Origin: Thermoanaerobaculia bacterium
GTDB taxonomy: Bacteria > Acidobacteriota > Thermoanaerobaculia > Multivoradales > Multivoraceae
Length of the DNA stretch: 64,000 bases
Reading direction: 5' to 3'
Assembly: GCA_963664405.1 (NCBI GenBank)
Contig: OY761158.1
Span: 416,001-480,000, forward strand
Part shown: piece by piece, positions 1 to 57,940 of the stretch
Layout of the letters: each line of letters begins with the position of its first letter
Position numbering within the stretch: position 1 is the first letter of the stretch
The notes under the pieces: model-generated
What the model was told of the DNA's origin: nothing
The model's database searches: none
What the model saw: the letters and a program-made list of their open reading frames with translations, nothing else
Made by a program: the position numbers and the translations under genes

Positions 1-17
1 AGCGGCACCTAGCCAGC

Positions 18-848
18 TCACTCACTGGCAGACGCGGAGGATCCTGCCACTTCCAGGCGAAGCTGTCTTGCCTCAGCAAGCAGGTCGCGAGCCGCCGCAA
101 CCCTCTCTGCTTCAGCGGAGCCAACGGAAGGGCCTGACACCAGGAGCGGCTCCGCATCACCAAGGCCGGTGCCACGGACCTCCATCAGTCTCTTGTAGAT
201 AGAATCGCGAAGGCCTTCGGCGTCTTCGAGCCCTCTGAAGAGGCCGACATGAGAACTACTCTTCTTGTCCCCGCCTCCGGCCGCCTCGGCCTCTGAACGA
301 GAGCCGCCGCCCGCGGTATGCACCTCCAGGTCGGCGATCCCGATCAGACGCTGGATCGGGCCCTGGCGCACCGACATATTCTGGATACTGGCGATGGTCA
401 TGGTCTGCTCGCGGAGAGACCAAACGCCCTCGCGGATCCGCACCGACTCTTCGCCCACCACGTACCAGCGCAGATCCCAGGACAGCTTCAAGAGCGCTGC
501 GGTAAAGATCATCTGCGAAAGAAAGGAAACTACGGCTACGATTTCGAACACTCGGTAGATGAGACCCGGATCGAGAAGGAAATTGACGAATGGAACGTTC
601 TGCTCCACGAGCTTCCCGACCACGCGCTCCACATCCTCGCTAGTGTTTTCGGGCAACCCGAACGACCCAAAAAAGGCCAGAGAGCCGACCAAGGCCAGCA
701 AGGTGCCGACCTGTTTCGGAAACCACATCAGCACGCTGTAGTAGAGATAGCGACGGGAGGCACGAAAGAGCCGAGGCGAGCTACCCGCCCCCGCCGGCAG
801 ATCAGGGCGCTCACTCACTCTCAGCCAACTAAGGAGACGCTTCCTCAC
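18..848 (-). CDS. bacterial PH (bPH_2, YdbS/YdbT-like) domain membrane protein
   Basis: TM segments followed by 'VRIREGVWSLREQTMTIASIQNMSVRQGPIQRLIGIADLEVHTAGG', the typical bPH_2 signature. Confidence 0.8.
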   Translation of the reverse strand: MRKRLLSWLRVSERPDLPAGAGSSPRLFRASRRYLYYSVLMWFPKQVGTLLALVGSLAFFGSFGLPENTSEDVERVVGKLVEQNVPFVNFLLDPGLIYRVFEIVAVVSFLSQMIFTAALLKLSWDLRWYVVGEESVRIREGVWSLREQTMTIASIQNMSVRQGPIQRLIGIADLEVHTAGGGSRSEAEAAGGGDKKSSSHVGLFRGLEDAEGLRDSIYKRLMEVRGTGLGDAEPLLVSGPSVGSAEAERVAAARDLLAEARQLRLEVAGSSASASE

Positions 849-1384
849 TCGTCTGGCTCCTCAGCGCCCGCCCCGGCCTTGTCAGCCAGGAACTTTCTCA
901 GATCTCGGATCTCGGCAGCCGCTTCACGGAGGGCTGCAACCAGGTCGTCGCTCGATTCTTCCCCGAGCGGCGACTCCTGCGCCGGCACCAATCCCCGTGC
1001 AGTCCGCATCCGCGAATACAGGAAATCGCGAACATCGTCGTAGTTCTGCAGGCCCTCGATCGTCATCTCGGCTGCGGCGGTGCCCGAGGCGGTCTGCACC
1101 TGAACTCGGGCGAGACCCAGCCAGCGTTGCAAGAGATTGCTGGTGAGGTGGATGTCTTGAATACGACCGTAGGTAAGACTTACCTCTCGACGAAAGAGCG
1201 CTCCCCAGCGCATGGTGACACCCTCGTCGTCGAATTGGTATCGGAGAGTCCGGTAGCGAAGATAGCGCGGCAGCAGTAGCAGCGGAAAGAAGGGGCCGAC
1301 GAGCAGAGACTCGAGAGCGTAATAGGTAAGCAGATTCTGATGCGGGCGCCGTCGTCCACGAACCCGCTCGCCGAGATCAACCAC
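845..1384 (-). CDS. bPH_2 (YdbS-like) domain protein
   Basis: 'RYQFDDEGVTMRWGALFRREVSLTYGRIQDIHLTSNLLQRWLGLARVQVQTASG'; likely GTG start at 1384 just after the upstream stop; 4-nt overlap with the next gene. Confidence 0.8.
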   Translation of the reverse strand: MVDLGERVRGRRRPHQNLLTYYALESLLVGPFFPLLLLPRYLRYRTLRYQFDDEGVTMRWGALFRREVSLTYGRIQDIHLTSNLLQRWLGLARVQVQTASGTAAAEMTIEGLQNYDDVRDFLYSRMRTARGLVPAQESPLGEESSDDLVAALREAAAEIRDLRKFLADKAGAGAEEPDE

Positions 1385-1392
1385 GAAGCTAT

Positions 1393-2478
1393 TCAGTGGC
1401 CGGCGCCCGCCTTGACCGCCACTTCGGCCTCCAGCAGGCGCGCACCGCGCAGGATGTTGCCCATCGCGTAGTTGCCCTCGTGGCAGGCGTACTCGTAGAC
1501 CTTGTTGTCGGTGCCGGGCCAAAGGTACTCGCCGCTCCAGGGAGCTGTCCAGGTCCCCTCGTCCTCTACTGTAAAGCTGTAGAGCAGGTCGTCTTCGCCC
1601 ATCCGCTGGAAGCGCTCGATCACGTGCAGATTGCGAGTCGCTCCCAACAGTCCGGGACTATCCGTGAAGTTCGTCGTGTCCACGATCAGCGTCTCGCCTT
1701 CCCAGTGACCGATCGAGTCACCGAGCCACTTGCGCACTTCAGTCGGCGGATGCTCCGAGTTCAGGCGGATGATCCGGGCATCGTGGACCATCTCGACCAA
1801 GATCATCACGTATTCAGGAGTCTGGATGATTCGCTTGTGATTGTTGTAGAGCACGGGCAGCATGGGCGGCCCTTGGGTCGAGCCGAAACCCATGAGACAA
1901 CGCTCCGCCGGGGGACGCCGCTCCGGGTCGTCATAGGGGGCCGGCCCTTCGAGGTCGAGCCACCACGCCTCGCCGGTGTTGGGCCGAAACAAAGATCGAC
2001 GAAGGGCTGCGTGCTCTTCGCCTGCTGCCGTGAGCGGCGGCTTTCTGCCGTTCGGCGGGTCGACGATGATCGAGGTTCGGTACTCCCCATCGATGGAGAA
2101 AGCTTGGCTACCCCGGTCAGCCCAAAAAACGTTGTACCCACCGACACTGCCGGCGCCAAAGGCCTCGCGCGGGAAGTCCTTCTGCCCGACGAGCGTGGAT
2201 CCGCCCTTTGCCGGTGCCGATCTGTTGCCATCGCTGATCTGCGATCCGGCGGCAATGAAAGCTCTCTCCCCCTCTGCCACCGCCACCGCCTCTTCCTCCG
2301 TCAGATAGAGCCTGTCGCCCAATTTGACCGGTCGCTCGAGCGGTGTCAGCGTTGCCGTGTCATAGGTCCCGCTGAGATCCGGTGCCTCGAACGCCGAAAG
2401 ATGGACCTGGCCCAAGAGGTCCACAGTCGGTAGGCACACCGCAAAAAGCAGAGAGCAGTAAATGACTCGCTTCTTCAT
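1393..2478 (-). CDS. conserved hypothetical secreted protein (PDLSG...WEGxTLxVxT...EYACHEGN family)
   Basis: Signal peptide from MKKRVIY; motifs PDLSG, ERCL, GDSIGHWEGETLIVDTTNF, YEYACHEGN; paralog at 40550-41404. Confidence 0.75.
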   Translation of the reverse strand: MKKRVIYCSLLFAVCLPTVDLLGQVHLSAFEAPDLSGTYDTATLTPLERPVKLGDRLYLTEEEAVAVAEGERAFIAAGSQISDGNRSAPAKGGSTLVGQKDFPREAFGAGSVGGYNVFWADRGSQAFSIDGEYRTSIIVDPPNGRKPPLTAAGEEHAALRRSLFRPNTGEAWWLDLEGPAPYDDPERRPPAERCLMGFGSTQGPPMLPVLYNNHKRIIQTPEYVMILVEMVHDARIIRLNSEHPPTEVRKWLGDSIGHWEGETLIVDTTNFTDSPGLLGATRNLHVIERFQRMGEDDLLYSFTVEDEGTWTAPWSGEYLWPGTDNKVYEYACHEGNYAMGNILRGARLLEAEVAVKAGAGH

Positions 2479-2735
2479 CCCCGTAATACCTCGGTCATAG
2501 TCACTCCTCATCAGCGCGGAAGCGATTCTAGACACTCGCGCAATGATAGCAGGGGGAACAGGGGCCCTCTCTTCCTACCCTCGCGCCCGACGATGACGTA
2601 TTGTCGCCCCTGCGATGACAGGAACCACCGGGGTCGGCGAGCACTACACCACCGGCCGTGTCCTGGCGGAGATACTCCAGGTCAGGCCATCGCAAGAAAA
2701 GCCGCGGTGAGGAGAAGAGTGACTAAGGAGTGAAC

Positions 2736-3920
2736 ATGAAGATCGTCGACGCCAAGCCTTTCATCGTCGGAACGCCGCCCCCCCACTTCGGAGGTGCCAA
2801 CTGGGTCTTCGTGAAGCTGACTACCGACGAAGGGATCCACGGATTTGGGGAGTCCTACGGATCCGAGCTCTACTTCCCCAGTGCCGTAAAGCTGCTGGAG
2901 GATATGGCCGAGCACTTCGTCATCGGCTCGGATCCATTCAAGATCGAGCGACTGTGGAAGATGCTCTATGCCAGCGGCTACTCCCAGCACGCAGACATTC
3001 TGAAAATGGCGGCCATCAGTGCCATCGAGATGGCCTGCTGGGACATCATCGGTAAAGCTCTCGGCCAGCCGATCTACAACCTGCTCGGCGGGCAATATCA
3101 CGATAAAATCCGCACATACTCCTATCTCTACCCTGCTCCAGGGGACACCTTGCCGGCGAACTCCGCGATGCACTATTCACCGGAGCGGACGCGAAAGAGC
3201 GCGGAAATGGCGCTGAGCCAAGGGTTCACGGCGGTCAAATTCGACCCCCTGATGACCCGGTCGACATTCGGTCCGTCCGAGCTGTCGCGGGCAGAGCTGG
3301 ACAACGTCGAAGCCGTGGTCAGTGGAGTCAGAGAGGTGCTTGGAAACAAGGCCGAGATCCTAATCGGAACCCACGGCCAGATGACGGCATCGAGCGCGAT
3401 CATGCTCGCCAAGCGCTTGGAGCCGTACGAACCGGCGTGGTTCGAAGAGCCGGTCCCGCCGGAGAATATGGACGAAATGGCCAGGGTCGTCAGATCAACG
3501 TCTATCCCCATCGCGACCGGCGAGCGCCTCACCACCAAGTACGAGTTCGCGCAGCTGCTGAACAAGCAGGCGGTCGGAATCTTGCAGATGGCGCTCGGAC
3601 GAGTGGGGGGCATCCTCGAAGCCAAAAAGATAGCGAGCATGGCCGAGGCTCACTACGTCAATTTCGCCCCTCATGTGTGGGCCGGCCCCATCGAGGCGGC
3701 GGCCAGCATTCAGCTCGACACTTGCTCTCCCAACTTCTTCATCCAGGAAGGTATCGGCAGGTGGGGTGACTTCTATGACGAGCTCCTTGTCGAGCCCTTC
3801 GTCTGGGAAGACGGCTACATCATTCCCTCGGATCGCCCTGGTTTAGGAGTCGAGATCAACGAGGAGGTAGCTCGCAAGCATCCCTTCGTCGAGATCAGGG
3901 GGCGCGACCTGGTGATCTGA
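2736..3920 (+). CDS. mandelate racemase/muconate lactonizing enzyme family protein (galactonate dehydratase-like)
   Basis: AGGAG SD; 'VFVKLTTDEGIHGFGE', 'AIEMACWDIIGKALGQPIYNLLGG', 'WFEEP', 'ATGERL', 'PSDRPGLGVE'. Confidence 0.9.
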   Translation: MKIVDAKPFIVGTPPPHFGGANWVFVKLTTDEGIHGFGESYGSELYFPSAVKLLEDMAEHFVIGSDPFKIERLWKMLYASGYSQHADILKMAAISAIEMACWDIIGKALGQPIYNLLGGQYHDKIRTYSYLYPAPGDTLPANSAMHYSPERTRKSAEMALSQGFTAVKFDPLMTRSTFGPSELSRAELDNVEAVVSGVREVLGNKAEILIGTHGQMTASSAIMLAKRLEPYEPAWFEEPVPPENMDEMARVVRSTSIPIATGERLTTKYEFAQLLNKQAVGILQMALGRVGGILEAKKIASMAEAHYVNFAPHVWAGPIEAAASIQLDTCSPNFFIQEGIGRWGDFYDELLVEPFVWEDGYIIPSDRPGLGVEINEEVARKHPFVEIRGRDLVI

Positions 3921-20277: not shown

Positions 20278-20286
20278 CGGCCGACA

Positions 20287-20453
20287 CTAGACCAGCGTTT
20301 CCAAAGTCGCGCTACAATAGCTCGCGGTCATTCTGTTCGCTGGCAAGGCGCGCCGACGTAGGCATATTGGGGAATATGTCGAGGAGGCGCAACGCCGCCA
20401 GCGGGGCAGAACGGGCCGAGATATGTAGTGCTACTTTGGAAACGCTGGTCTAG
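20287..20453. repeat. CTAG-bounded palindromic MITE-like element, copy 1
   Basis: Perfect TIR CTAGACCAGCGTTTCCAAAGT / ACTTTGGAAACGCTGGTCTAG; nested internal stems; near-identical copy at 36851. Confidence 0.9.
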
Positions 20454-32925: not shown

Positions 32926-33668
32926 GAAGGCACAGCGAGAAAGTCGAGGTTGAGCGAAGGTTTCTGAAGCTTTGAGCATCCCCTATACCAAGAGCCCTCC
33001 GCGGAAGACCGCTGGGCAAGTCGAATCAACGGAACTGGAGGTAGGGGATGAAGAACAGAACGTTTCGTACCGCGCTCGGTTGTCTGTCGGTCTGCGCTTT
33101 GCTGGCCTCGGCCGCAGCTCCCGCTCACGCCGGGCCCGGAGAGCGCCGGCTCGATCTCGAGCAGGGCCTCAAATCAGAATCGCTCACGCCGGTACCGCAG
33201 GCCGAAGAGGCGGGTGGTGAGAACAGCGAACCGAGCAAGGCCCTCCGAGTCGAGGAGTTTCGCCTCCATGAGGCCGCCGAGGCCTATTCGCGCTCAGAGG
33301 CGGGGGTGGTGTTGATGGCTGCGAGAAAGCGCATCCCGTTGGCTGCGAGCGCAGTTTCCGGGATGGAGTGAGCTGAGGGCTTCGCGACCGCGGGAAAGCT
33401 AGGCCTTCTTCAGGAAGGGCGGCATCATCCCGCCGGAACGGCGGTCCGGGTGCGTGGTCCCGGCGGCGTGTTTGCGGTCGGAAGAGATGCGTGAGTCGGT
33501 GTAGGGCTTTGCAGTGCGGGCTCTGCTCTGATAGAGCAGGCCGACCAGAGACGGCGAGAGCCCGGGAAAGCGAAGTAGAAAACGCCCCGGGCTCTGCCCC
33601 AAACCGCAGCATTAGCTGCGCTTGCAGTATGGCAGAGAGTCGGGGTCGTCGTCGAATGGGAGGCGACG

Positions 33669-34064
33669 ATGCGACCGGACTACCGACTCTTCGACTGTGC
33701 TCGATGCCGTCGGCGTATCTCGCTGTGCTCGCACTGTGACCGTGGCCAGCGTTACTGCCGGGCTTGTGCTCTGGTGGCTCGTCGGGAATCGACTCGGGCG
33801 GCCGGCCATCGGTACCAGCGAAGCCTCCGAGGTCGGCATTGTCATGCCGCCCGTCAGGCCCGCTACCGTCGGCGCCAGCGCGAGCGGGCAGAGAAAGTGA
33901 CGCATCAGGGTACCCCAGGCGGTACTTCGGGGAGGACACTGTGTCGGATCGAGACTCCGAGGCGCGAAGTGCGCTACGACCCGAGGAATCCGCGATGCAT
34001 GCAGTGTGGAGAGGCCTGCCGAGAGTTTGTGCGAACGAGCTTTCGTCGTTGCCGACGGAGATAG
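33669..34064 (+). CDS. IS21-associated Cys-rich, Arg-rich protein (putative zinc finger)
   Basis: GGAGG SD; CARC-x6-CSHC-DRGQRY-CRAC, basic helix, KVTH, CMQCGEAC; homolog at 49622-50113. Confidence 0.8.
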   Translation: MRPDYRLFDCARCRRRISLCSHCDRGQRYCRACALVARRESTRAAGHRYQRSLRGRHCHAARQARYRRRQRERAEKVTHQGTPGGTSGRTLCRIETPRREVRYDPRNPRCMQCGEACREFVRTSFRRCRRR

Positions 34065-34068
34065 GGGC

Positions 34069-35577
34069 GTGATCGACGCACAGCTGCGCGGGGAGATCCG
34101 TCGTCTGTTCCTGGTCGAGAAGTGGAAAGTCGGCACGATCGCTCGACAGCTACAGCTGCACCCCTCAACCGTGCGCCGGGCGCTGGAGAAGTCCGGCGTG
34201 CTACCCCAGCAGCGACGAGGGAGGATGATCGATCCTTACCTGCCGTTCATCGAGCAGGTGCTCGGGACCTACCCACGACTGCCGGCGAGCCGTCTCTACA
34301 CCATGGTGGTGGAGCGCGGCTATCCAGGAGGCCCGGATCAGTTTCGCCACCTGGTGGCCTCGATGCGACCGAAGCCCCAGCGCGAGGCGTTTCTCTCGCT
34401 GCGCATGCTGCCAGGAGAGCAGGCGCAGGTCGACTGGGGCCACTTCGGTCGGCTCCGCGTCGGCCGGGCACATCGTCGGCTCTATGCCTTCGTCTTCGTG
34501 CTGTCGTTCTCGCGCACGGTCTTCGTGCACTTCACCCTCGACACTCGTCTCGAAACCTTCTTGCACGCTCACCAGCTGGCCTTCCACTACGTCGACGGCG
34601 TCGTCAGGACCGTTCTGTACGACAACCTGCGAACCGCGGTGATCGAGCGGCAGGGAACCGCGGTGCGCTTCCATCCCGTGCTGCTCGATTTCGCCAGCCA
34701 CTACGGCTTCCTTCCCACCGTCGCCGCGGTGGCTCGGGGAAATGAGAAAGGCCGCGTCGAGCGCGCAATCCGCTTCCTGCGAAGCTCGTTCTTCGGCGCC
34801 CGAACGGTGAGCGATTTGGATCGTCTGAATCGGCAGGTCCTGGAATGGTGCCAGAGGTCGCAGCGCAGACCCTGGCCGCAGGACCGACAGCGAACCGTGA
34901 AAAGCGCCCTGGCCCAGGAACGACCTCGACTGCTTGAGCTTCCCGGAGACGACTTCGAAACCGACCTGCGACTGGAGATCAAGGTCAGAAAGACGCCGAT
35001 CGTGCGCTTCGACCTCAACGACTACTCGGTGCCGCACAGTCATGTGCAGAGGACCGTCACGCTCCTCGCCAGCGAGCATCGGGTGCGGATCCTCGATGGC
35101 CAGGAGCTCCTCGCCGAGCACCCTCGCTCGTACTCCCGGGGCGAGCAGATCCTCGATCCTCAACACCTCGAGGAGCTCCTCGCTCACAAACGCAGGGCCC
35201 GACGACACCGGGGCTTCCATCGGCTGTTTTCCGCTGTGCCTCGATGCGAAGAGCTGATGCAGCAGCTCGCCGAGCGAGGCGAGAACCTCGGAACGCAGAC
35301 CGCCGGCCTGCTCCGACTCCTGCGCCAGTACGGCCCCCAGCGACTCGACAAAGCCGTGCGCGAAGCGCTCCTGAACCACGCACCGCGATTCCAGTCCGTC
35401 CGGCTCCTACTCGAACGGCACCAGCGCGGCCTCGGTCAGCCCCCGGCTTTACCGGTGCCGCTCAGCCAGGAGCTCCAACAGCGAGATCTCTCCGTGAGAC
35501 CGCACAACCTCGAGGACTACGACCAACTTGGAGGCAACGACGATGGCCCGACCCAGGAAGAGTCCAACGATCCCTGA
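34069..35577 (+). CDS. istA: IS21 transposase IstA
   Basis: N-terminal HTH; 'PGEQAQVDWG', 'LYDN', 'GNEKGRVERAI', 'FDLNDYSVP'. Confidence 0.96.
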   Translation: MIDAQLRGEIRRLFLVEKWKVGTIARQLQLHPSTVRRALEKSGVLPQQRRGRMIDPYLPFIEQVLGTYPRLPASRLYTMVVERGYPGGPDQFRHLVASMRPKPQREAFLSLRMLPGEQAQVDWGHFGRLRVGRAHRRLYAFVFVLSFSRTVFVHFTLDTRLETFLHAHQLAFHYVDGVVRTVLYDNLRTAVIERQGTAVRFHPVLLDFASHYGFLPTVAAVARGNEKGRVERAIRFLRSSFFGARTVSDLDRLNRQVLEWCQRSQRRPWPQDRQRTVKSALAQERPRLLELPGDDFETDLRLEIKVRKTPIVRFDLNDYSVPHSHVQRTVTLLASEHRVRILDGQELLAEHPRSYSRGEQILDPQHLEELLAHKRRARRHRGFHRLFSAVPRCEELMQQLAERGENLGTQTAGLLRLLRQYGPQRLDKAVREALLNHAPRFQSVRLLLERHQRGLGQPPALPVPLSQELQQRDLSVRPHNLEDYDQLGGNDDGPTQEESNDP

Positions 35578-36337
35578 CGAACCACTACGAGAGCTCGCCC
35601 GATCCCTCGGCTTCTACGCCCTCGTCGACGACTGGGGCACCTACCGAGAACAGCCCTGGCTCGAACAGCTGCTGCGCAAAGAAGAGGCCGAGCGCAAACG
35701 GCGCAGCCTCGAACGGCGCATCCGCACCAGCCGCGTCGGGCTCTTCAAGAGCATCGCCGACTTCGACTTCTCCTGGCCCCAGCGCATCGACCGCGAGCAG
35801 ATCCAGGATCTGCTCACCCTCCAATTCCTCGACGACATCACCAACGTCATCCTCCTCGGACCCAACGGTGTCGGCAAGACCATGATTGCCAAGAACCTCC
35901 TCTACCAGGCGCTGCAACGAGGGGCCACCGCCAGCTTCGTCACCGCCTCCGACATGCTCAACGATCTCGCCGTCCAGGAAACCCCCTCGGCGCTCCAGAG
36001 AAGGCTCTCCAAATACACCCGACCCTCGCTTTTGGCAATCGATGAGCTCGGCTATCTCTCCTACGACCACCGCCACGCGGATCTCCTCTTCGAGGTCGTC
36101 TCCAGGAGATACGGCAACAAGCCCATTCTTCTCACCACCAACAAGCCCTTCGCCGAATGGGCCGAGGTCTTTCCCAACGCCTCCTGCGTCGTCACTCTCG
36201 TCGATCGACTCACCCACCACGCCGAGATCGTCAAGATCGAGGCTAACTCCTATCGCCGCAAGGAGGCCAAGGAGGCTGCTGAAAAAAAGGCCAAGGACCG
36301 CGCCAAAAGGCGGAGCGCAGCACGACGACGCTCATGA
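35543..36337 (+). CDS. istB: IS21 AAA+ helper ATPase IstB
   Basis: 'DFDFSWP', Walker A 'GPNGVGKT', Walker B 'LAIDELGY', 'TTNKPF.EW', 'DRLTHH', 'SYR'. Confidence 0.96.
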   Translation: MARPRKSPTIPDEPLRELARSLGFYALVDDWGTYREQPWLEQLLRKEEAERKRRSLERRIRTSRVGLFKSIADFDFSWPQRIDREQIQDLLTLQFLDDITNVILLGPNGVGKTMIAKNLLYQALQRGATASFVTASDMLNDLAVQETPSALQRRLSKYTRPSLLAIDELGYLSYDHRHADLLFEVVSRRYGNKPILLTTNKPFAEWAEVFPNASCVVTLVDRLTHHAEIVKIEANSYRRKEAKEAAEKKAKDRAKRRSAARRRS

Positions 36338-36691
36338 CCCGAAGCCACTATCGGCGCCAGCTCCTCCGCCTCTATCGACTCCTTCCCGACACCCCGCACC
36401 GCTTCCACCACGGCGACCGCGTCATCGTCGACCAGCTCTTCGACCAAGACCTGCCTCTCACCGTCCTCCAGGCCGCCCTCCTCCTCGGCTCCGCCCGACG
36501 CGCATGCCGAGATCCGCGCCTACCAAAGCTCCAGCCCATCCGATCCCTCGCCTACTTTCTCCCCATCCTCCGAGAACTCCCCACGACGCCACCCCCCGAA
36601 GGGGTACCTCGACTATCTGCGCCACACCCTGAGTCACGCCTCGCGGGGACAAAAAACCGACTCGCAGCCAACTAAGTGCGCTTTCTCGTAG
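36334..36691 (+). CDS. IS21-associated small helical protein (apparent +1 frameshift at the G-run 36601-36604)
   Basis: ATGA coupling to istB; 'YRRQLLRLYRLLPDTP...IRSLAYFLP'; removing one G restores 'EGYLDYLRH', matching homolog 'PQYVRYILLRH'. Confidence 0.75.
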
Positions 36692-36850
36692 CCGGTAACA
36701 GGTGGCAGCCGCCGCGGCCGCCGAGGCCACTCCAAGGCGCCACGGCTTCGGACGGTGGCTCAAGAAGCACTGGTACGTTCCTGTGCTGGTAGGCGCCGCC
36801 ATCGGCTTTGCCGTCTCCGATGACAGCGACGATCCGAACGAGATAGACGA

Positions 36851-37016
36851 CTAGACCAGCGTTTTCAAAGTTCGGGTTGCATAGCTCGAGCTCATTCTGT
36901 TCGCTGGCAAGGCGCGCCGACGCAGGCATATTGGGCAATATGTCGAGGAGGCGCAACGCCGGCAGCGGGCAGAAGGGGCCGAGATATGTACGCGAACTTT
37001 GGAAACGCTGGTCTAG
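36851..37016. repeat. CTAG-bounded palindromic MITE-like element, copy 2
   Basis: CTAGACCAGCGTTTTCAAAGTTCG ... CGAACTTTGGAAACGCTGGTCTAG; same core as copy 1. Confidence 0.9.
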
Positions 37017-45225: not shown

Positions 45226-46953
45226 ATGTCCGATCTTCGCTACGAGGTCCACGATCGACCGCCGCATCTGCTCTCGGCCGCTCTAGGCTTTCAGGTCGTC
45301 GTTCTCATCCTCGCCGGCATCGTCCTGGTCCCGGTGATCGTCCTCAAAGCGGCCGGAAGCGCCCCCCCCATCATCACCTGGGCCGTCTTCGCGGCGCTCT
45401 TGGTCAGCGGCCTGATCACGATCGTGCAGGCGAGGCCGATCGGACCTGTCGGCGCCGGCTACGTCCTCTTCATGGGCACCAGCGGCGCCTTCATCGCGGT
45501 TTCGACGGCGGCGGTGAAAGCCGGCGGCCTCGCTCTTCTTGCGACCCTGGTCGCTCTCTCGTCGCTCATCCAGTTCGCCTTCTCGGCACGCCTCGCACTC
45601 TTCCGCAAGGTCATTACGCCAACGGTCGGCGGCACGGTCATCATGTTGATCGCCGTCGACGTGTTTCCTATCTGCTTTGGCATGCTGACGACCGTCCCCG
45701 AGCATGTCGATCCGGCGTCCAACGCCGGTCCGCTCACCGCAGCAGCTACCTTTGCCGTCATTCTCTTCGTTTCTCTCTTAGGCACCGGAAAGGCCAGGCT
45801 CTGGGCACCTCTCATCGGCGTCATCGTCGGTTGCAGCGTCGGCTATGGAGTAGGCCTGTTCAACCTCGAGGCGGTGCGTAGCGCCCCTTGGATCGGCATC
45901 CCGTCCGCAGGGTGGCCGGGCCTCGATCTCTCTTTCGACGCGCGACTCTGGAGCCTGCTTCCCGCCTTTCTCATCGTCACCATCGTCGGCGCAATCGAGA
46001 CCTATGGCGACGGCATCGCCATCCAGAGGGTCTCGAAGGGTCGTCGCGAGCCGGTGGACTTCAAGGCTGTGCAGGGCGCCGTCAACGCTGACGGGGTCGG
46101 CAATCTACTCTCCGGGCTGGCCGGAACTCTTCCAAACACCACCTACTCCACCAGCATCTCGGTCGTCGAGCTCACCGGTGTCGCCGCGCGGCGTGTTGGC
46201 ATTTACGCCGGAGCGCTGATGGTGGCTTTCGCCTTCCTGCCCAAGGTCTCGGCCCTGCTCCAGTCGATTCCCGACGCAGCCGCGGGGGCCTACATCATGA
46301 TCCTCCTGGCCCTTCTCTTCGCCCAGGGTCTACGTCTGGTATCGGACGGCGGTCTCTCCTACGAGAACGGCCTCGTGGTCTGCCTTTCGTTCTGGATTGG
46401 GACCGGGTTCCAGGGCGGGCTGATCTTTCCCACCCAGATGCCCGAGTGGGCGCACACCCTCCTCGACAACGGCATGACCTCTGGCGGAGTCACCGCCATC
46501 CTTCTCACCCTGCTCTTGTCGATCAAGCATCGTTCCCACGACCGCCTCAAGCTCGAAGCGGCCCCTGCGGCAGTACCGGCGTTACACGATTTCCTCAAAT
46601 CGATCGCCAGCCGAGCCGGCTGGGATCAGACCGCGGTCGACCGACTCCAGCTCGCCGGTGAGGAAGCTCTACTCTTTCTCATCACCAAAGAGGAGGAAGC
46701 GGAGCGAGCCGGCGAGGCAGCAATCGGAGTTTCGGCTCGCGAGTCGGAAGGGGTTATCGAGCTCGAGTTCGCCAGTGGCCCGGGCGCCGCCAATATCGAG
46801 ATTCTGGTCCGCGACCTCGATGATGCGGATCGCGCCCCCTCCGATGACGCAGGACTCCGTATCCTCCGCCATCTGGCTAAAGAACTGCGTCACGAGCAGT
46901 TCCACGACCGCAACTATCTGATGGTCAGAGTGGAGAGCAAGCCGCTGGCCTAG
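45226..46953 (+). CDS. NCS2 (xanthine/uracil/ascorbate) permease with C-terminal RsbW-like domain
   Basis: Multiple TMs; 'MGTSGAF', 'IETYGD', 'ADGVGNLLSG..GTLPNTTYS', 'TGVAARRVG'; extra ~130-aa C-terminal domain. Confidence 0.85.
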   Translation: MSDLRYEVHDRPPHLLSAALGFQVVVLILAGIVLVPVIVLKAAGSAPPIITWAVFAALLVSGLITIVQARPIGPVGAGYVLFMGTSGAFIAVSTAAVKAGGLALLATLVALSSLIQFAFSARLALFRKVITPTVGGTVIMLIAVDVFPICFGMLTTVPEHVDPASNAGPLTAAATFAVILFVSLLGTGKARLWAPLIGVIVGCSVGYGVGLFNLEAVRSAPWIGIPSAGWPGLDLSFDARLWSLLPAFLIVTIVGAIETYGDGIAIQRVSKGRREPVDFKAVQGAVNADGVGNLLSGLAGTLPNTTYSTSISVVELTGVAARRVGIYAGALMVAFAFLPKVSALLQSIPDAAAGAYIMILLALLFAQGLRLVSDGGLSYENGLVVCLSFWIGTGFQGGLIFPTQMPEWAHTLLDNGMTSGGVTAILLTLLLSIKHRSHDRLKLEAAPAAVPALHDFLKSIASRAGWDQTAVDRLQLAGEEALLFLITKEEEAERAGEAAIGVSARESEGVIELEFASGPGAANIEILVRDLDDADRAPSDDAGLRILRHLAKELRHEQFHDRNYLMVRVESKPLA

Positions 46954-47045
46954 CCCCAGAAAACGCGCCTTCGGCCCGTTTTCCGGCCCATCCCCGCCTG
47001 AGAACTACTCGCCTGTCCGAATTCTCGGACACGTGTTATCGGCGG

Positions 47046-47399
47046 TCATAAAGTGCGGGATTCCGGCTGTGTAGTGGCGCTTTTGGTTTCATCCTCCTCG
47101 AGAAGGGACCGGTGCCGAAGGAGGATGTAGCGGACGTATTGAGGGTCGAGCTCGTCGTTGGTCAGGGCTCGATGTACGGAGCGGTAGTAGGCAAGTGAGT
47201 GAATCTGCGGCAGCGGATCGGTGCTGAGGCGCCGTCGCAAGGTGGCGAGTCGAATGGCATGGGCAAGCTCTTCGAGGGGGACGTTGGCTTGATAGAGCTT
47301 GTCGGCGATGGCCCAGTCTCGGCGCCGAGGTCTAGACGGGGTTTTAGGAGCGTCGAGGTAGAGGCGGATGAGCTCGGCGCGATACTCCTGTCGGATCAC
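47046..47399 (-). CDS. IS21-associated small helical protein
   Basis: GTGA coupling to the istB stop; 'YRAELIRLYLDAPKTP...DWAIADKLY...IHSLAYYRSV'; homolog of 36334. Confidence 0.8.
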   Translation of the reverse strand: MIRQEYRAELIRLYLDAPKTPSRPRRRDWAIADKLYQANVPLEELAHAIRLATLRRRLSTDPLPQIHSLAYYRSVHRALTNDELDPQYVRYILLRHRSLLEEDETKSATTQPESRTL

Positions 47400-48169
47400 G
47401 AGGTCTTCGCACTGCGCCGTCGAGGGCGAGTGCCGCTTCGGCGGGCCGAAGCGCGCTTCTTGGCGTGCTCCTTGGACTCCTTGAGCCGATAGGAATCGCC
47501 CTCGATGTTGACGAGCTCGCAGCGATGGACGAGGCGATCGACGATGGTGACGACGGTAGTAGCGTTGGGGAAGACCTCTCCCCATTCTCCAAAGGACTTG
47601 TTTGTGGTGATGAGAAGGGACTTATTTTCGTACCTGCGGGAAACGACCTCGAAAAGTAGATCGGCGTGGCGCGTGTCGTAGGACAGATATCCGAGCTCGT
47701 CAATGCAGAGCAGGGATGGGCGCGCAAAGAGCGCGAGCTTGCGCTGAAGGCTGGTCGAGGAGTCTTGTTCGGCGAGGGTGTTGAGCAGCTCCGAGGCGGT
47801 GAGGAATCGGGCGGTGGCTCCACGTAGTACGGCTTGATGGGCGAGATTCTTGGCAATGAGCGTCTTGCCGATGCCGTTTGGCCCTATCAAGACAGCGTTG
47901 TGCCCTCGGGCGAGCCACTCGAGCCGAAAGAGATCTTCGATCTGCTCGCGGTCGATCTTCTTGGGCCAATTCCAGTCGAAGTCGGCCAGCGGCTTGAAGG
48001 TGCCGAGCCGGGCCCGACCCAGGCGTCGCTCCAGTCCGCGACGGGCTCGCTCCTGCTCTTCCCAGTCGAGCAGGTCGGGGAGCCAGGGTTGGTTGGCGAC
48101 CTCATCCCAGTGGGCTAGGAGGCCATGGAGTTTCAGGGCTGTGGCACGCTCTTGGTCGGTGTTGTTCAT
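47396..48169 (-). CDS. istB: IS21 AAA+ helper ATPase IstB
   Basis: 'GPNGIGKT', 'LCIDELGY', 'TTNKSFGEW', 'DRLVH', 'GDSYR'. Confidence 0.96.
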   Translation of the reverse strand: MNNTDQERATALKLHGLLAHWDEVANQPWLPDLLDWEEQERARRGLERRLGRARLGTFKPLADFDWNWPKKIDREQIEDLFRLEWLARGHNAVLIGPNGIGKTLIAKNLAHQAVLRGATARFLTASELLNTLAEQDSSTSLQRKLALFARPSLLCIDELGYLSYDTRHADLLFEVVSRRYENKSLLITTNKSFGEWGEVFPNATTVVTIVDRLVHRCELVNIEGDSYRLKESKEHAKKRASARRSGTRPRRRSAKTS

Positions 48170-49665
48170 TCGTCGTCCTCCTCGTCGTTGGGGTTGTCGT
48201 AGTCGGCCAGTGCATGGGGAGTGACCGTGAGCTCCCGGATCCTGGGATCGTCGGGGAGCTGGACAGGCAGCGCGGGTAGGAGTCCCCGCTCGTGGCGCCG
48301 ACGATCGAGGATGAGTCGCACCGCTTCGGGATGCGGGGATCCTTTTTCGAGGGCCTCGTCGATCGCCACTGCAAGCTCCCTGGGTCCACTCTCGGCAAGG
48401 AGCTCGAGGAGTCTGGCGACGGCACTCGAGAGTCGTCTCTGCCGTCGGGCCAGCTCCCGCAGGAGCTCTTCGGCCTGGGGCACCGTACGCAGCAGGTAGT
48501 CCTGGCCGCGCTGTGTACGTGCCTCGCGTTTCTGTCGTTCCAGCTCTTCTAGGTGACGGGGGTCTTCGATGATCTGGCCCTTGTCCCAGGACCTTGTGTG
48601 CTCGGCGATGAGCTGCTCGCGATCGAAGATGCGCACACGCTCCGGGTCTGCGGCGATCTGTAGCGAGCGGGCGATGCGATCATGCGGGATCGAGTAGCGA
48701 TTCGCATCGAAGCTCAGGTAAGGAGTGCGCCGCGTGATCCGCTCGACCCATTCGTGGCAGGGGAAAGGCTGCGCCGGAAGGCTCACGAGATGAGAGCGCT
48801 CCTCGAGATAGGCCTGCTCGACGGTGCGACGCCGGTCCTGGGGCCACGGGCGCTTCATCGCTCGGTCGCGACACCACTCCAGAGCGTCCCGGTTCAGCGC
48901 TTCTCTGTCCCAGGTGCGACGCAGCGGAAAGAAGGAAGTTCTGACAAAACGAATGGCTCGTTCGACGCGACCTTTTTCATTTCCTCGTCTGGGAGCAACG
49001 GGCCTTGGATCAAAGCCGTAGAAGTCGGCGAGCTCGAGAAGCCGTGGATGAAAGCGAATGGCGCTGCGGCGCCGCTCGAGCACAGCGCTGCGCAGATTGT
49101 CGTAGAGGTGGATCTTGGCCAGACCCTCAAAGAAGGAGAAGGCGAGGACATGCCCGGTCAGGAAGCTCGGCAGACGAGCGTCGTAGAAGAAGTGCAGAAA
49201 GAGAGCTCGCGAGTAGCTCAGCACCATGACGAAGGCGTAGAGACGGCGCTCTCCGCCATCGACCTTTCGGGTGCCGAAGTGAGCCCAGTCCACCTGGGCC
49301 TGTTCGCCGGCAAGCGTACGGAGCACAAAGAAAGCCTCAGGCGCCTTGCGGGGGCGCAGGCCGAGCTCGGCAATGCAGTGGCGGAAGTGATCCTCCCCAC
49401 CGGGATAGTCACGCTTCTTGACCATCTCGTAGAGCACGCTCGCCGGCAGCTCCGGGTAGCGCTCAAAGACTTCCTGGATGAAGGGGACGAAGCGATCGAC
49501 CATGGACGCTCGTCGCGGCGATCGAGGCCGGCTCAGCCCTTCGCGTCGAAGGACTCGAGTGACCGTCGAGTGATGGATTCCCAGATGGCGGGCGATCGTG
49601 TTGCGCCGCCAGCCCTCCGACTCATAGAGACGGCGGATCTCGGCGGCGAGCTCGGGAGAGATCAT
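48166..49665 (-). CDS. istA: IS21 transposase IstA
   Basis: HTH; 'GEQAQVDW', 'LSYSR', 'LYDN', 'GNEKGRVERAI', 'FDANRYSIP'. Confidence 0.96.
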   Translation of the reverse strand: MISPELAAEIRRLYESEGWRRNTIARHLGIHHSTVTRVLRREGLSRPRSPRRASMVDRFVPFIQEVFERYPELPASVLYEMVKKRDYPGGEDHFRHCIAELGLRPRKAPEAFFVLRTLAGEQAQVDWAHFGTRKVDGGERRLYAFVMVLSYSRALFLHFFYDARLPSFLTGHVLAFSFFEGLAKIHLYDNLRSAVLERRRSAIRFHPRLLELADFYGFDPRPVAPRRGNEKGRVERAIRFVRTSFFPLRRTWDREALNRDALEWCRDRAMKRPWPQDRRRTVEQAYLEERSHLVSLPAQPFPCHEWVERITRRTPYLSFDANRYSIPHDRIARSLQIAADPERVRIFDREQLIAEHTRSWDKGQIIEDPRHLEELERQKREARTQRGQDYLLRTVPQAEELLRELARRQRRLSSAVARLLELLAESGPRELAVAIDEALEKGSPHPEAVRLILDRRRHERGLLPALPVQLPDDPRIRELTVTPHALADYDNPNDEEDDE

Positions 49666-50113
49666 CCCGCGCCCGCCTGCGCACCGGGCGTACTCGGCGC
49701 GATCGCAAGAAGTCGTGGCGGACAATCGGCTCGCAAGGATGGCGGCACAGCCTGCAGAGAAGCTCCTCGTTCCGACCTCCAACGGACAAGCCTTGCAAAA
49801 ACAACGGAAGCGGCGCGGTGGGCCATGACGCCACCGTCGCAGGGCAGCCCCCGGTGCGGCAACTGTGATGCGTCACTTTCTTTGAGCCTTGCTGCTTGCG
49901 ATCTCGATAGGCCTGCTGACGACGAGCATGCAAGCGGCGCCCTCGCGGCGTCTGCTGATAGCGACGCCCGGCCCCGCGAAGGCTGTGGCGCCGAGCCTCA
50001 TCCCGGCACTCCGGCGTGCAATAACGATGGCCGCGATCGCACCAAGAGCAAATGTAGACAGCTTGCCGGCAACGATCGCAAACGAAACGGCGACAATCGG
50101 GACGGCGGCGCAC
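49622..50113 (-). CDS. IS21-associated Cys-rich, Arg-rich protein (putative zinc finger)
   Basis: AAGGAGG SD before GTG at 50113; CDRC-x6-CSWC-DRGHRY-CTPEC, basic helix, KVTH, CRLCRHPC. Confidence 0.8.
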   Translation of the reverse strand: MRRRPDCRRFVCDRCRQAVYICSWCDRGHRYCTPECRDEARRHSLRGAGRRYQQTPRGRRLHARRQQAYRDRKQQGSKKVTHHSCRTGGCPATVASWPTAPLPLFLQGLSVGGRNEELLCRLCRHPCEPIVRHDFLRSRRVRPVRRRARDDLSRARRRDPPSL

Positions 50114-50377
50114 GGCCCAGGCCTCCTTCGGCCTGGACTTCGCCACCCGCAGGCGGAATACTCCCTCTTCTGGGGCGTCATACCCCAGGCCTTCCGGCGG
50201 TGGGCGGTCACCTTGCTTGGAGTCGCCCCCGCCGGTCTCCCCATACTCCCACCTGCCACGCTGCTCGCGCGCTCGCGCGCGACGATGATGCTGAAGAGAC
50301 TCTCAGCAGGAAACGCGGTCAGAAAGCCGGGATCGCGCGCTTCTTAAGCGCCGTTGACAACACGCTCCTAGCCTCCA

Positions 50378-50397
50378 GAAATGATTACTATCATTTC
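50378..50397. promoter_or_regulatory. AT-rich palindrome GAAATGAT-TACT-ATCATTTC (possible operator)
   Basis: 8-bp perfect arms in an otherwise GC-rich sequence. Confidence 0.4.
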
Positions 50398-50668
50398 CTC
50401 CGGCTAGTTGCAGTTTGGCGCCGAGGACGGCGCACTCAGGCGTTGATTCCTATTCGCTTCGGAAACGCCGGGGCCGATTCTTCACCGACATCGTGACGAA
50501 TAGCCCTGCACTCTTGTCCTCTCTTGTCCGGATTCGGTCATTCATGATGCTCCTACTGCGGTGCCGCAGCACCTCGCTACGGACCTCATGAATACTCCAG
50601 GCTAAGCGGAATCCCCGGGCCCCCATCCTCGCCGTCTAGCGAGACCCCCTTAGCGAGGTGCTCATGGG

Positions 50669-57774: not shown

Positions 57775-57940
57775 CTAGTGTCCTGTAACAGTGGTTCGTT
57801 GCATAAATCGCGCAGTCATTTTGTGGGCTGCCAAGGCGCGCCGACGAAGTCATATTGGGAATATTTCGAGGAGGTGCTACGACGGCAGGACGCAAAAGGG
57901 CCAGCGAGTTATGTGACGAGCCACTGGTACAGGACACTAG
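57775..57940. repeat. CTAG-bounded palindromic element, divergent copy 3
   Basis: TIR CTAGTGTCCTGTAACAGTGG / CCACTGGTACAGGACACTAG; core CAAGGCGCGCCGACG...CATATTGGGAATAT.TCGAGGAGG shared with copies 1 and 2. Confidence 0.85.

Follow-up and report, generated by a model that had tools for sequence, protein, structure and literature searches.

A predicted antisense small RNA and a start-codon hairpin in the long left end of a four-gene IS21-family insertion sequence

RNA-OUT of the insertion sequence IS10 (IS4 family) is transcribed from an outward promoter near the end of the element, folds into a stable single stem-loop and covers the start codon of RNA-IN. Inc RNA of the IncI-alpha and IncB plasmids is an antisense RNA that blocks an activating long-range pairing in the rep leader. 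The IS21 family is the structural model for transposases with an AAA+ helper and helps to spread resistance and virulence genes; its canonical left end is short, and its known self-control is a split promoter occluded by the transposase itself. Here we analyze a 64,000-nucleotide (nt) stretch of high-G+C DNA from a Thermoanaerobaculia bacterium (GenBank assembly GCA_963664405.1, contig OY761158.1, positions 416,001 to 480,000; hereafter the window), in which two related IS21-type elements lie on opposite strands. The subject is the 359-nt non-coding left end of the first of these, Element 1, and the small antisense RNA that this end is predicted to encode.

In IS200, the antisense RNA art200, Hfq and a stem-loop in the 5' untranslated region (5'UTR) independently repress translation of tnpA, according to the study by Ellis, Trussler and Haniford (2015, PMC4513863). 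In ISPpu9, a member of the IS110 family, the small RNAs (sRNAs) Asr9 and Ssr9 and a structured 5'UTR control transposase expression (as outlined in PMC8450116). In IS21, the left terminal repeat carries a -10 box and the right one a -35 box, which make a strong promoter when the ends are joined or in tandem (as outlined in PMC10122671).

We read the left end of Element 1 as a post-transcriptional control region that would make two RNAs, and a repressor of the RNA-OUT or art200 kind is, with a probability of roughly 0.6, the best reading of its sequence features. The predicted RNA resembles RNA-OUT in its outward promoter near the element end, its stem-loop character and an inhibition expected to rise with copy number; it differs in having two hairpins and no overlap with the ribosome site, and in its IS21 affiliation. 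The suggested pairing of two leader segments, A and S (defined below), recalls Inc RNA in that an antisense RNA would mask a leader segment whose pairing opens the translation start, with transposition rather than plasmid replication as the process controlled.

By analogy, the closest known arrangement is the left end of IS200, which likewise holds a cis-encoded antisense small RNA and a messenger RNA structure that hides the start in a non-coding left end (PMC4513863). However, art200 covers the translation start of tnpA and directly prevents the 30S subunit from binding, whereas the RNA predicted here lies wholly upstream of the start-codon hairpin; and the enzymes differ, a DDE transposase (IstA) and an AAA+ helper (IstB) here and an HUH enzyme in IS200. 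ISPpu9, set beside our elements by its description in PMC8450116, also joins an element-encoded small RNA to 5'UTR structure, with a different family and enzyme and with control that is only predicted in our case. Canonical IS21 and IS5376, as far as PMC10122671 describes them, share with Element 1 IstA, IstB, L1/L2 and R1/R2 terminal repeats, 5-bp duplications and the absence of strong target specificity, but canonical IS21 has two open reading frames (ORFs), and the available part of that source mentions no antisense RNA; the subgroup described here has four ORFs and left ends of ~240-520 nt. Structured RNAs in the non-coding end of an insertion sequence are also known as the bridge RNA of IS110 and the omegaRNA of IS200/IS605 (outlined in PMC11208160), but they direct the choice of site and show covariation with target and donor, whereas the insertion sites here have no motif in common.

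As far as found, what is new is a predicted insertion-sequence-encoded cis-antisense small RNA with leader structure, a known kind of system apparently undescribed for the IS21 family. No literature on antisense or structured RNA of IS21 elements was found, as judged by titles and abstract openings; the structural papers listed for IstA and IstB make no mention of non-coding RNA; and IS21, IstA and IstB are absent from the main text of two 2026 preprints that map prokaryotic non-coding elements. A widespread subgroup with a zinc-finger gene, a structured leader and a predicted antisense RNA would add RNA-level control to the family.

The preliminary description of this locus had proposed, from the letters alone, that the left end encodes an outwardly transcribed structured RNA, and every feature it named is present, at the coordinates it gave, in the ~360-nt left end. 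The features that matter here are as follows.

33310-36700, plus strand: Element 1, an insertion sequence of the IS21 family; the window copy measures 3391 bp, and 19 of the 21 full copies that were aligned measure 3390 bp
33305-33309 and again 36701-36705, no strand: target-site duplication GGTGG, flanking the window copy
33310-33349, plus strand: left terminal inverted repeat, 80% complementary to the right repeat
33423-33428, plus strand: CATCAT motif, also present in the subfamily of Element 2 as CAGCATCATCGTCGCGCGCG
33523-33539, minus strand: third stem, CUGCUCU-AUC-AGAGCAG, downstream of the long hairpin
33547-33562, plus strand: segment A of the sense leader, which resembles the start region, lies directly 5' of the long hairpin and is the best partner of S in the whole leader
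33557-33595, minus strand: long hairpin, a 10-bp stem AGAGCCCGGG/CCCGGGCUCU with a 19-nt loop, followed by the pyrimidine-rich tail CGCCGUCUCUGG
33605-33620, minus strand: 5' hairpin of the predicted antisense RNA, CGCAGC-UAAU-GCUGCG, with a 6-bp stem
33626-33655, minus strand: outward promoter-like site, with -35 TCGACG at 33655-33650, an 18-nt spacer, TG at 33634-33633 and -10 CATACT at 33631-33626
33645-33670, plus strand: sense hairpin over the start codon, 9 bp with two G.U pairs, 33645-33653 pairing with 33662-33670 (-17 kcal/mol, z -1.7)

Relative to the ATG of the zinc-finger ORF at 33669, the -35 of the outward site starts 14 nt upstream and the -10 ends 38 nt upstream. Promoter pairs were scored on a scale of our own with a maximum of 13, taking the best pair within 110 nt before the zinc-finger start. 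The Element 1 pair, with 8 of 12 consensus matches plus the TG, scores 9; when the 110 nt ahead of the Element 1 start are shuffled (500 mononucleotide shuffles), 1.2% score as high. With the RNA start placed by inference at the seventh nt after the -10, the predicted 80-nt RNA (33619-33540, minus strand) folds with -39.1 kcal/mol (z -3.4; plus strand, z -5.9), and the complete 359-nt left end forms more stable structures than its shuffles on either strand (z -3.5 and -3.1).

Relatives of Element 1 were collected by the presence of a zinc-finger ORF before IstA, which a pattern scan found in 340 stretches of species-representative genomes and 339 of metagenome contigs. From these, 160 loci were fetched, with hosts in Pseudomonadota, Acidobacteriota, Myxococcota and other phyla, and 156 upstream regions were scored. 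By BLASTN, the 600 nt upstream fall into subfamilies of 60, 16, 12, 11 (with Element 2), 6, 6, 4, 4, 3, and 3 loci and a few pairs. Their element ends were defined from alignments, the detection of inverted repeats by short BLAST being too noisy. In the 60-locus subfamily the element starts with TGT(G/T)AACGGC and the non-coding left end measures ~240-520 nt; a long left end is thus the rule for this IS21 subgroup. A block containing CATCAT (CAGCATCATCGTCGCGCGCG in the subfamily of Element 2) is strongly conserved ~70-115 nt from the left end and may serve as a binding site for a protein or as part of a sense promoter.

A minus-strand promoter-like pair is conserved across the relatives, whose left ends do not otherwise align between subfamilies, its -35 starting 12-60 nt before the zinc-finger start in most subfamilies and its consensus being T(G/C/A)GAC(A/G/T)-N17/18-nA(T/C)ACT, often with TG. 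The pairs compare as follows.

Element 1, minus strand: TCGACG-18-(TG)CATACT
Element 2, antisense strand of that element: TGGACT-17-AATACT
60-locus subfamily, minus strand: T(G/C/A)GACA-18-(TG)AATACT
a Rhizobium subfamily, minus strand: TCGACG-17-TATAAT

Of the 156 upstream regions, 118 have a best score of at least 8 on the minus strand, compared with 5 on the plus strand. Eleven of the 14 cluster representatives score at least 8, values that shuffles reach in 0-6.4% of trials; the pair is weak or unclear in three subfamilies, those with 16 loci (representative score 7), 12 loci (score 6) and 4 loci (c4a, score 7). A promoter scan tool reported the pair as the only promoter-like site in one locus (L064) and in a copy on a Burkholderia thailandensis plasmid. 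A predicted outward promoter inside the element, directed opposite to the transposase gene, is in this sense present as a conserved sequence motif.

Structural covariation among homologous left ends, which the preliminary description had named as a check, was found in the relatives as compensatory changes on the minus strand. Helix counts used 49 distinct sequences of the 60-locus subfamily. In RNAalifold, the minus strand gives a 14-bp helix right after the promoter, of which the plus strand recovers 5 pairs. On the minus strand 98.5% of the cells of this long hairpin pair, 6 of the 14 pairs are changed on both sides, and 0/500 shuffles reach the observed paired fraction or covariation score; on the plus strand 81.7% of cells pair. 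One pair is G.U in 44/49 sequences, and two others are G.U or U.G in 18 and 21. For the wobble counts, helices were defined without strand preference, and cells pairable on one strand only were counted.

60-locus subfamily: 114 minus-only cells, 1 plus-only
16-locus subfamily: 9 minus-only, 0 plus-only
12-locus subfamily: 15 minus-only, 1 plus-only
11-locus subfamily (with Element 2), long hairpin: 8 minus-only, 0 plus-only
6-locus subfamily: 21 minus-only, 0 plus-only
4-locus subfamily: 5 minus-only, 2 plus-only

The total over the six is 172 minus-only against 4 plus-only cells, with the same direction in every one, in counts that overstate the number of independent events since sequences inside a subfamily are related. 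Because compensatory and wobble changes are kept on the minus strand in six subfamilies, selection would act on the RNA fold itself, which implies that the long hairpin of the relatives is selected as a minus-strand RNA.

The predicted RNA has a recurrent plan in nearly every lineage: it begins with GCA or GC and proceeds through a small 5' hairpin and a long hairpin (median 16 pairs, +25 to +69) to a pyrimidine- or U-rich tail. At least 4 U occur in the 12 nt after the hairpin in 46/103 sequences on the minus strand vs. 3/103 read on the plus strand, and clear U-runs, GGUUUUUUU and GUUUUCU, follow it in two subfamilies. Conservation extends to single-stranded stretches, such as, in the 60-locus subfamily, GCAACG at the 5' end, and to the 5' hairpin. 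In the same subfamily a further small stem and a conserved UUU(C/G)UA tract follow ~35 nt on. A covariance model (R1) based on 48 sequences from the 60-locus subfamily, and its iterated version (R2), gave full-length matches on the minus strand only, at the expected place; they matched members of seven further subfamilies (c2c, c3a, c16, c6a, c6b, c12, and c2b), several unclustered loci and the Burkholderia plasmid copy, with plus-strand matches that were partial (the hairpin alone) or much weaker. The predicted antisense RNA would be a new family, absent from Rfam: Rfam 15 gave 0 matches in the window at the gathering score and, at E up to 5, only chance microRNA matches in 33250-33750, and over 14 related loci it gave nothing relevant, its sole match, traJ-II, lying far from the left end.

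The leader on the opposite strand is structured in its own right. In Element 1 the start-codon hairpin, both of whose G.U pairs are plus-only, buries part of the ribosome site, which extends into the loop, and holds the A and U of the ATG in paired positions. In the equivalent hairpin of the 60-locus subfamily, 95.9% of cells pair on the plus strand and 88.8% on the minus strand, so that the two hairpins have opposite biases, the long hairpin favoring minus and the start-codon hairpin plus. In one group of that subfamily, a hairpin 75-108 nt from the left end has 49 plus-only vs. 1 minus-only wobble cells, because of which sense transcripts are taken to cover the leader. Two RNAs are thus supported by these sequence patterns, a structured antisense RNA of at least ~75 nt and a sense leader with a buried start codon.

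A long-range pairing within this leader may link the two. If S denotes the 5' arm of the start-codon hairpin (33645-33653) and T the 3' arm with the start codon (33662-33670), a sliding-window duplex search gives -17.8 to -18.1 kcal/mol for the pairing A:S in Element 1, compared with -15.9 for the local hairpin S:T, and the predicted antisense RNA contains the complement of A in its 3' arm and tail. In 41/49 sequences of the 60-locus subfamily, S has its best partner 2-10 nt away from the hairpin, and the A site varies along with S (GCCUGUGU with GCAUGGGC, GCCGGUGG with CCAUUGGC).

From these patterns we infer that Element 1 itself makes the RNA, with the ends and the route of repression given here. 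A sigma-70-like outward promoter, its -35 set just before the zinc-finger ORF, would drive a small RNA from near 33619 with a 5' hairpin, a long GC-rich hairpin and a pyrimidine- or U-rich tail, ending at ~33546 or somewhat beyond (at least ~75 nt); the long hairpin would probably serve as a stabilizer and a weak intrinsic terminator. Sense transcription would run through the whole leader if the IS21-like -10 in the left terminal repeat applies here, and the leader hairpin directly before the gene would bury the start codon. With full complementarity to a leader stretch ~50-125 nt ahead of the start codon, the small RNA would most likely reduce the output of the zinc-finger/IstA/IstB operon; since the copies are all identical, each of them would be its target, inhibition would rise with copy number, and the RNA might thereby help to explain how one genome tolerates 23 identical copies. 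As a possible route, pairing of A with S would free the start codon, and the small RNA, by masking A, would keep it buried, which would amount to a natural three-part switch of decoy, sequestor and start. The same effect could come equally well from transcriptional interference or from cleavage of the duplex by RNase III.

Several observations weigh against this account. With a start ~50 nt ahead of the ATG and an outward course, the predicted RNA overlaps neither ribosome site nor start codon, and the A-to-S energies are just moderately above shuffles (median z -1.6, with 17/49 below -2). Outer helices of other subfamilies show no clear strand bias. The Element 1 left end, searched by BLASTN against 85 loci, had a single match, an identical element (L051); the next-best relatives of its zinc-finger protein are ~50% identical, or 68% over 80 residues in the metagenome scan. 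R1 and R2 find neither Element 1, Element 2 nor their nearest subfamilies, and the scan tool, at its cut of 9 of 12, reported nothing at the Element 1 pair. Both strands of Element 1 fold well, so folding energy does not tell the strand, and its three minus-strand stems are all perfect Watson-Crick, so Element 1 alone gives no strand information; its tail after the long hairpin has just 3 U in 12 nt. Element 1, with no alignable relative, is assigned to the antisense-RNA group by a matching layout, in which a start-codon hairpin, -35, -10, small hairpin, long hairpin and pyrimidine tail follow one another as in the relatives. The earlier claim of an outward structured RNA is accordingly supported in part: by the promoter-like pair, the minus-only wobble and the covariance models of the relatives, and less so by Element 1, which the models miss and whose predicted RNA leaves the start codon uncovered. 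Pairing of the RNA in trans with the zinc-finger translation start was rejected, since among 21 representatives the pairing was not beyond chance (z -2.07 to +2.06).

The alternative that survives best, although unlikely, is that the outward promoter matters and not its RNA, either through transcriptional interference, with convergent transcription that ends at the hairpin blocking polymerase that enters from the left end or from neighboring genes, or as half of a divergent, symmetric -10 of which the other half, a weak sense promoter, is the useful one. AGTAT(T) does fit the key positions on both strands, with A at position 2 and T at position 6 of a -10 offset by one base, and it could also serve a divergent sense promoter, in which case the two RNAs would not overlap; an RNA that leaves the ribosome site uncovered and a tail only weakly terminator-like agree with a promoter-only role. 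On the other hand, no sense promoter conserved in place was found on the plus strand of the 156 regions, where scores of at least 8 are few and the -35 is not conserved, and the long stem is maintained on the minus strand in six subfamilies beyond what a modest terminator would need, together with the 5' hairpin.

Also improbable is the view that Element 1 makes no RNA, its hexamers and hairpins being either chance products of GC-rich DNA or sites on the DNA at which IstA, the zinc-finger protein or host factors act. The failure to align Element 1 with its relatives or to recover it with R1 and R2, its stems without strand information and the silence of the scan tool all favor it, as does the 7-nt word GAAAGCG, common to the left inverted repeat and the long-hairpin loop; such likeness of hairpin loops to transposase-binding repeats was seen, by eye, on different strands in different subfamilies. 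Against it stand an order and spacing that match the relatives, the low share of shuffles (1.2%) that reach the promoter score and the z of -3.4 for the 80-nt fold. None of the only 6 variable positions among 21 aligned full copies lies within 33546-33655, a weak point, as the copies are young; in older, fragmentary copies, changes within the covered part of the predicted RNA are confined to loop bases. Because wobble is strand-specific, a pure DNA-level explanation fails for the relatives and is possible for Element 1 alone.

There is a slim chance that the RNA and the Arg-rich zinc-finger protein form a ribonucleoprotein in transposition, for copy-number sensing or for licensing of IstA/IstB at the left end; this would be an RNA-dependent layer in a DDE/AAA+ transposon, beyond a passive antisense brake. 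A role as a transposition cofactor more broadly, whether as a guide of the IS110 bridge RNA or omegaRNA type or as a partner of the zinc-finger protein, has little probability. RNA and zinc-finger ORF do co-occur in every subfamily examined, all of them collected by means of that ORF, the protein is Arg/Cys-rich like many RNA-binding peptides, and the fold is kept more than simple antisense pairing requires. Yet the 20 duplicated insertion sites have no common motif, which means that target choice cannot come from the RNA; IS21 relies on IstB for an integration without strong target specificity (as outlined in PMC10122671), and no covariation of loops with element ends was noticed by eye. A guide RNA is also unlikely from the proteins, which are IstA and IstB and not an IS110 recombinase, TnpB or IscB; of the two functions offered by the preliminary description, an RNA-OUT-like antisense regulator fits and a bridge-RNA- or omegaRNA-like cofactor does not. 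Action in trans on messages of the host or of other elements, as discussed for art200 and 5'tnpA of IS200, is very improbable, for although 23 identical genes would give a high dose and single-stranded stretches such as GCAACG of the 60-locus subfamily are conserved, pairing with the zinc-finger start, the only target searched, was at chance level and hosts in several phyla make a shared host target unlikely.

Element 1 is itself an active IS21-family insertion sequence. In the genome of 6.78 Mb (one contig), BLAST found 22 full copies and 1 interrupted copy with 99.9-100% identity, an extra copy of 3367 nt without the right tip, and several fragments. Genome copies align over element positions 1-3391, which confirms the 359-nt stretch as the genuine left end. 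The termini are TG...CA, with terminal inverted repeats of 40 nt (33310-33349 vs. 36661-36700). The word GGCTGCGAG occurs twice, in direct orientation, in the left end (33318-33326 and 33342-33350), and by analogy with the IS21 end architecture outlined in PMC10122671 these copies are read as putative L1/L2 transposase sites. A duplication of 5-6 bp is present at 20/23 insertion places with flanks examined, and no common target motif is visible in the 20 duplicated sites of these identical copies. The genes are as follows.

33669-34064, plus strand: first gene, a 131-aa Cys/Arg-rich zinc-finger-like protein without family assignment
34006-35577, plus strand: IstA transposase (NF033546, 244.8 bits, cutoff 160; Pfam rve and Mu-transpos_C_2)
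35528-36337, plus strand: IstB helper ATPase (NF038214, 210.6 bits, cutoff 200; PF01695, 211 bits)
36334-36675, plus strand: fourth small ORF, its stop inside the right inverted repeat

The domain matches of IstA and IstB make the enzyme a DDE transposase with an AAA+ helper; the IstA coordinates are those of the longest ORF, its true start being uncertain. IstA, IstB, TG...CA repeats with direct repeats, and short duplications without a target motif all place Element 1 in the IS21 family. In place of the two-ORF IS21 layout it has four ORFs, the zinc-finger ORF preceding IstA and the small ORF following IstB, which is a feature of the subgroup and no reason for exclusion from the family. The fourth ORF contains an extra A at 36599 in the window copy and one other copy that is absent from 19/21 full copies, and because so few copies have it, the 113-aa reading in the window is a minority frame. 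The zinc-finger-like protein had no match in Pfam or NCBIfam; the proteins of both elements (33669-34064, and 49622-50113 on the minus strand) have invariant CxxC...CxxCDRGxRYC and KVTHQG-like motifs.

In plasmid records the zinc-finger ORF is mostly absent from gene tables or labelled hypothetical. Plasmids of Aromatoleum aromaticum EbN1, Alicycliphilus denitrificans BC and Methylotuvimicrobium alcaliphilum 20Z carry relatives of this ORF. The Burkholderia thailandensis plasmid copy has the same four-gene order, with the first ORF missing from the gene table and the fourth annotated as hypothetical. A DNA search of the plasmid collection with a representative left end of the 60-locus subfamily gave no match. 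The traJ-II RNA mentioned above (RF01760, 80 bits) lies at 239-339 of a Methylomagnum contig (L068), ~4.6 kb upstream of an IS21-type element, and suggests a conjugative-plasmid context.

The second IS21-type element of the window, and the predicted antisense unit within it, are located as follows.

47034-50359, minus strand: Element 2, a related four-gene IS21 element of 3326 bp
50134-50235, plus strand (antisense for Element 2): antisense unit, with TGGACT-N17-AATACT at 50134-50162, a small hairpin at 50170-50188 and a long hairpin at 50194-50235
50285-50290, plus strand of the window: CATCAT motif, inside the true left end

BLAST found 7 further full-length matches of Element 2 elsewhere in the genome, one of them with just 95% identity, and a further copy that an Element 1 insertion divides in two. 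Its zinc-finger ORF starts with GTG at 50113, preceded by GGAGG, and its true left end runs from 50359 down to 50114. The preliminary description had assigned Element 2 the same order of features, which was found, in a left end of just ~246 nt; beyond 50360 lie unrelated short dispersed repeats outside the element.

Some minor observations concern the surroundings of the two elements. One Element 1 copy is nested in an Element 2 copy (genome G000:C1, 2646767-2650158), and the interrupted Element 1 copy holds an insert of ~3.3 kb at element position 1438-1443 (genome G000:C1, 6339246-6345987). An element of ~167 bp resembling a miniature inverted-repeat transposable element, with terminal inverted repeats of ~30 bp (CTAGACCAGCGTTTCCAAAGT...), is present in three copies (20286-20453, 36850-37016, and 57775-57940), one of them 150 bp to the right of Element 1. 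The repeats that flank Element 2 (46949-47033 and 50360-50467) belong to families of ~85 bp (>40 genome matches) and ~105 bp (~20 matches); some of the ~105-bp repeats form tandem arrays, and Element 2 seems to have inserted among them.

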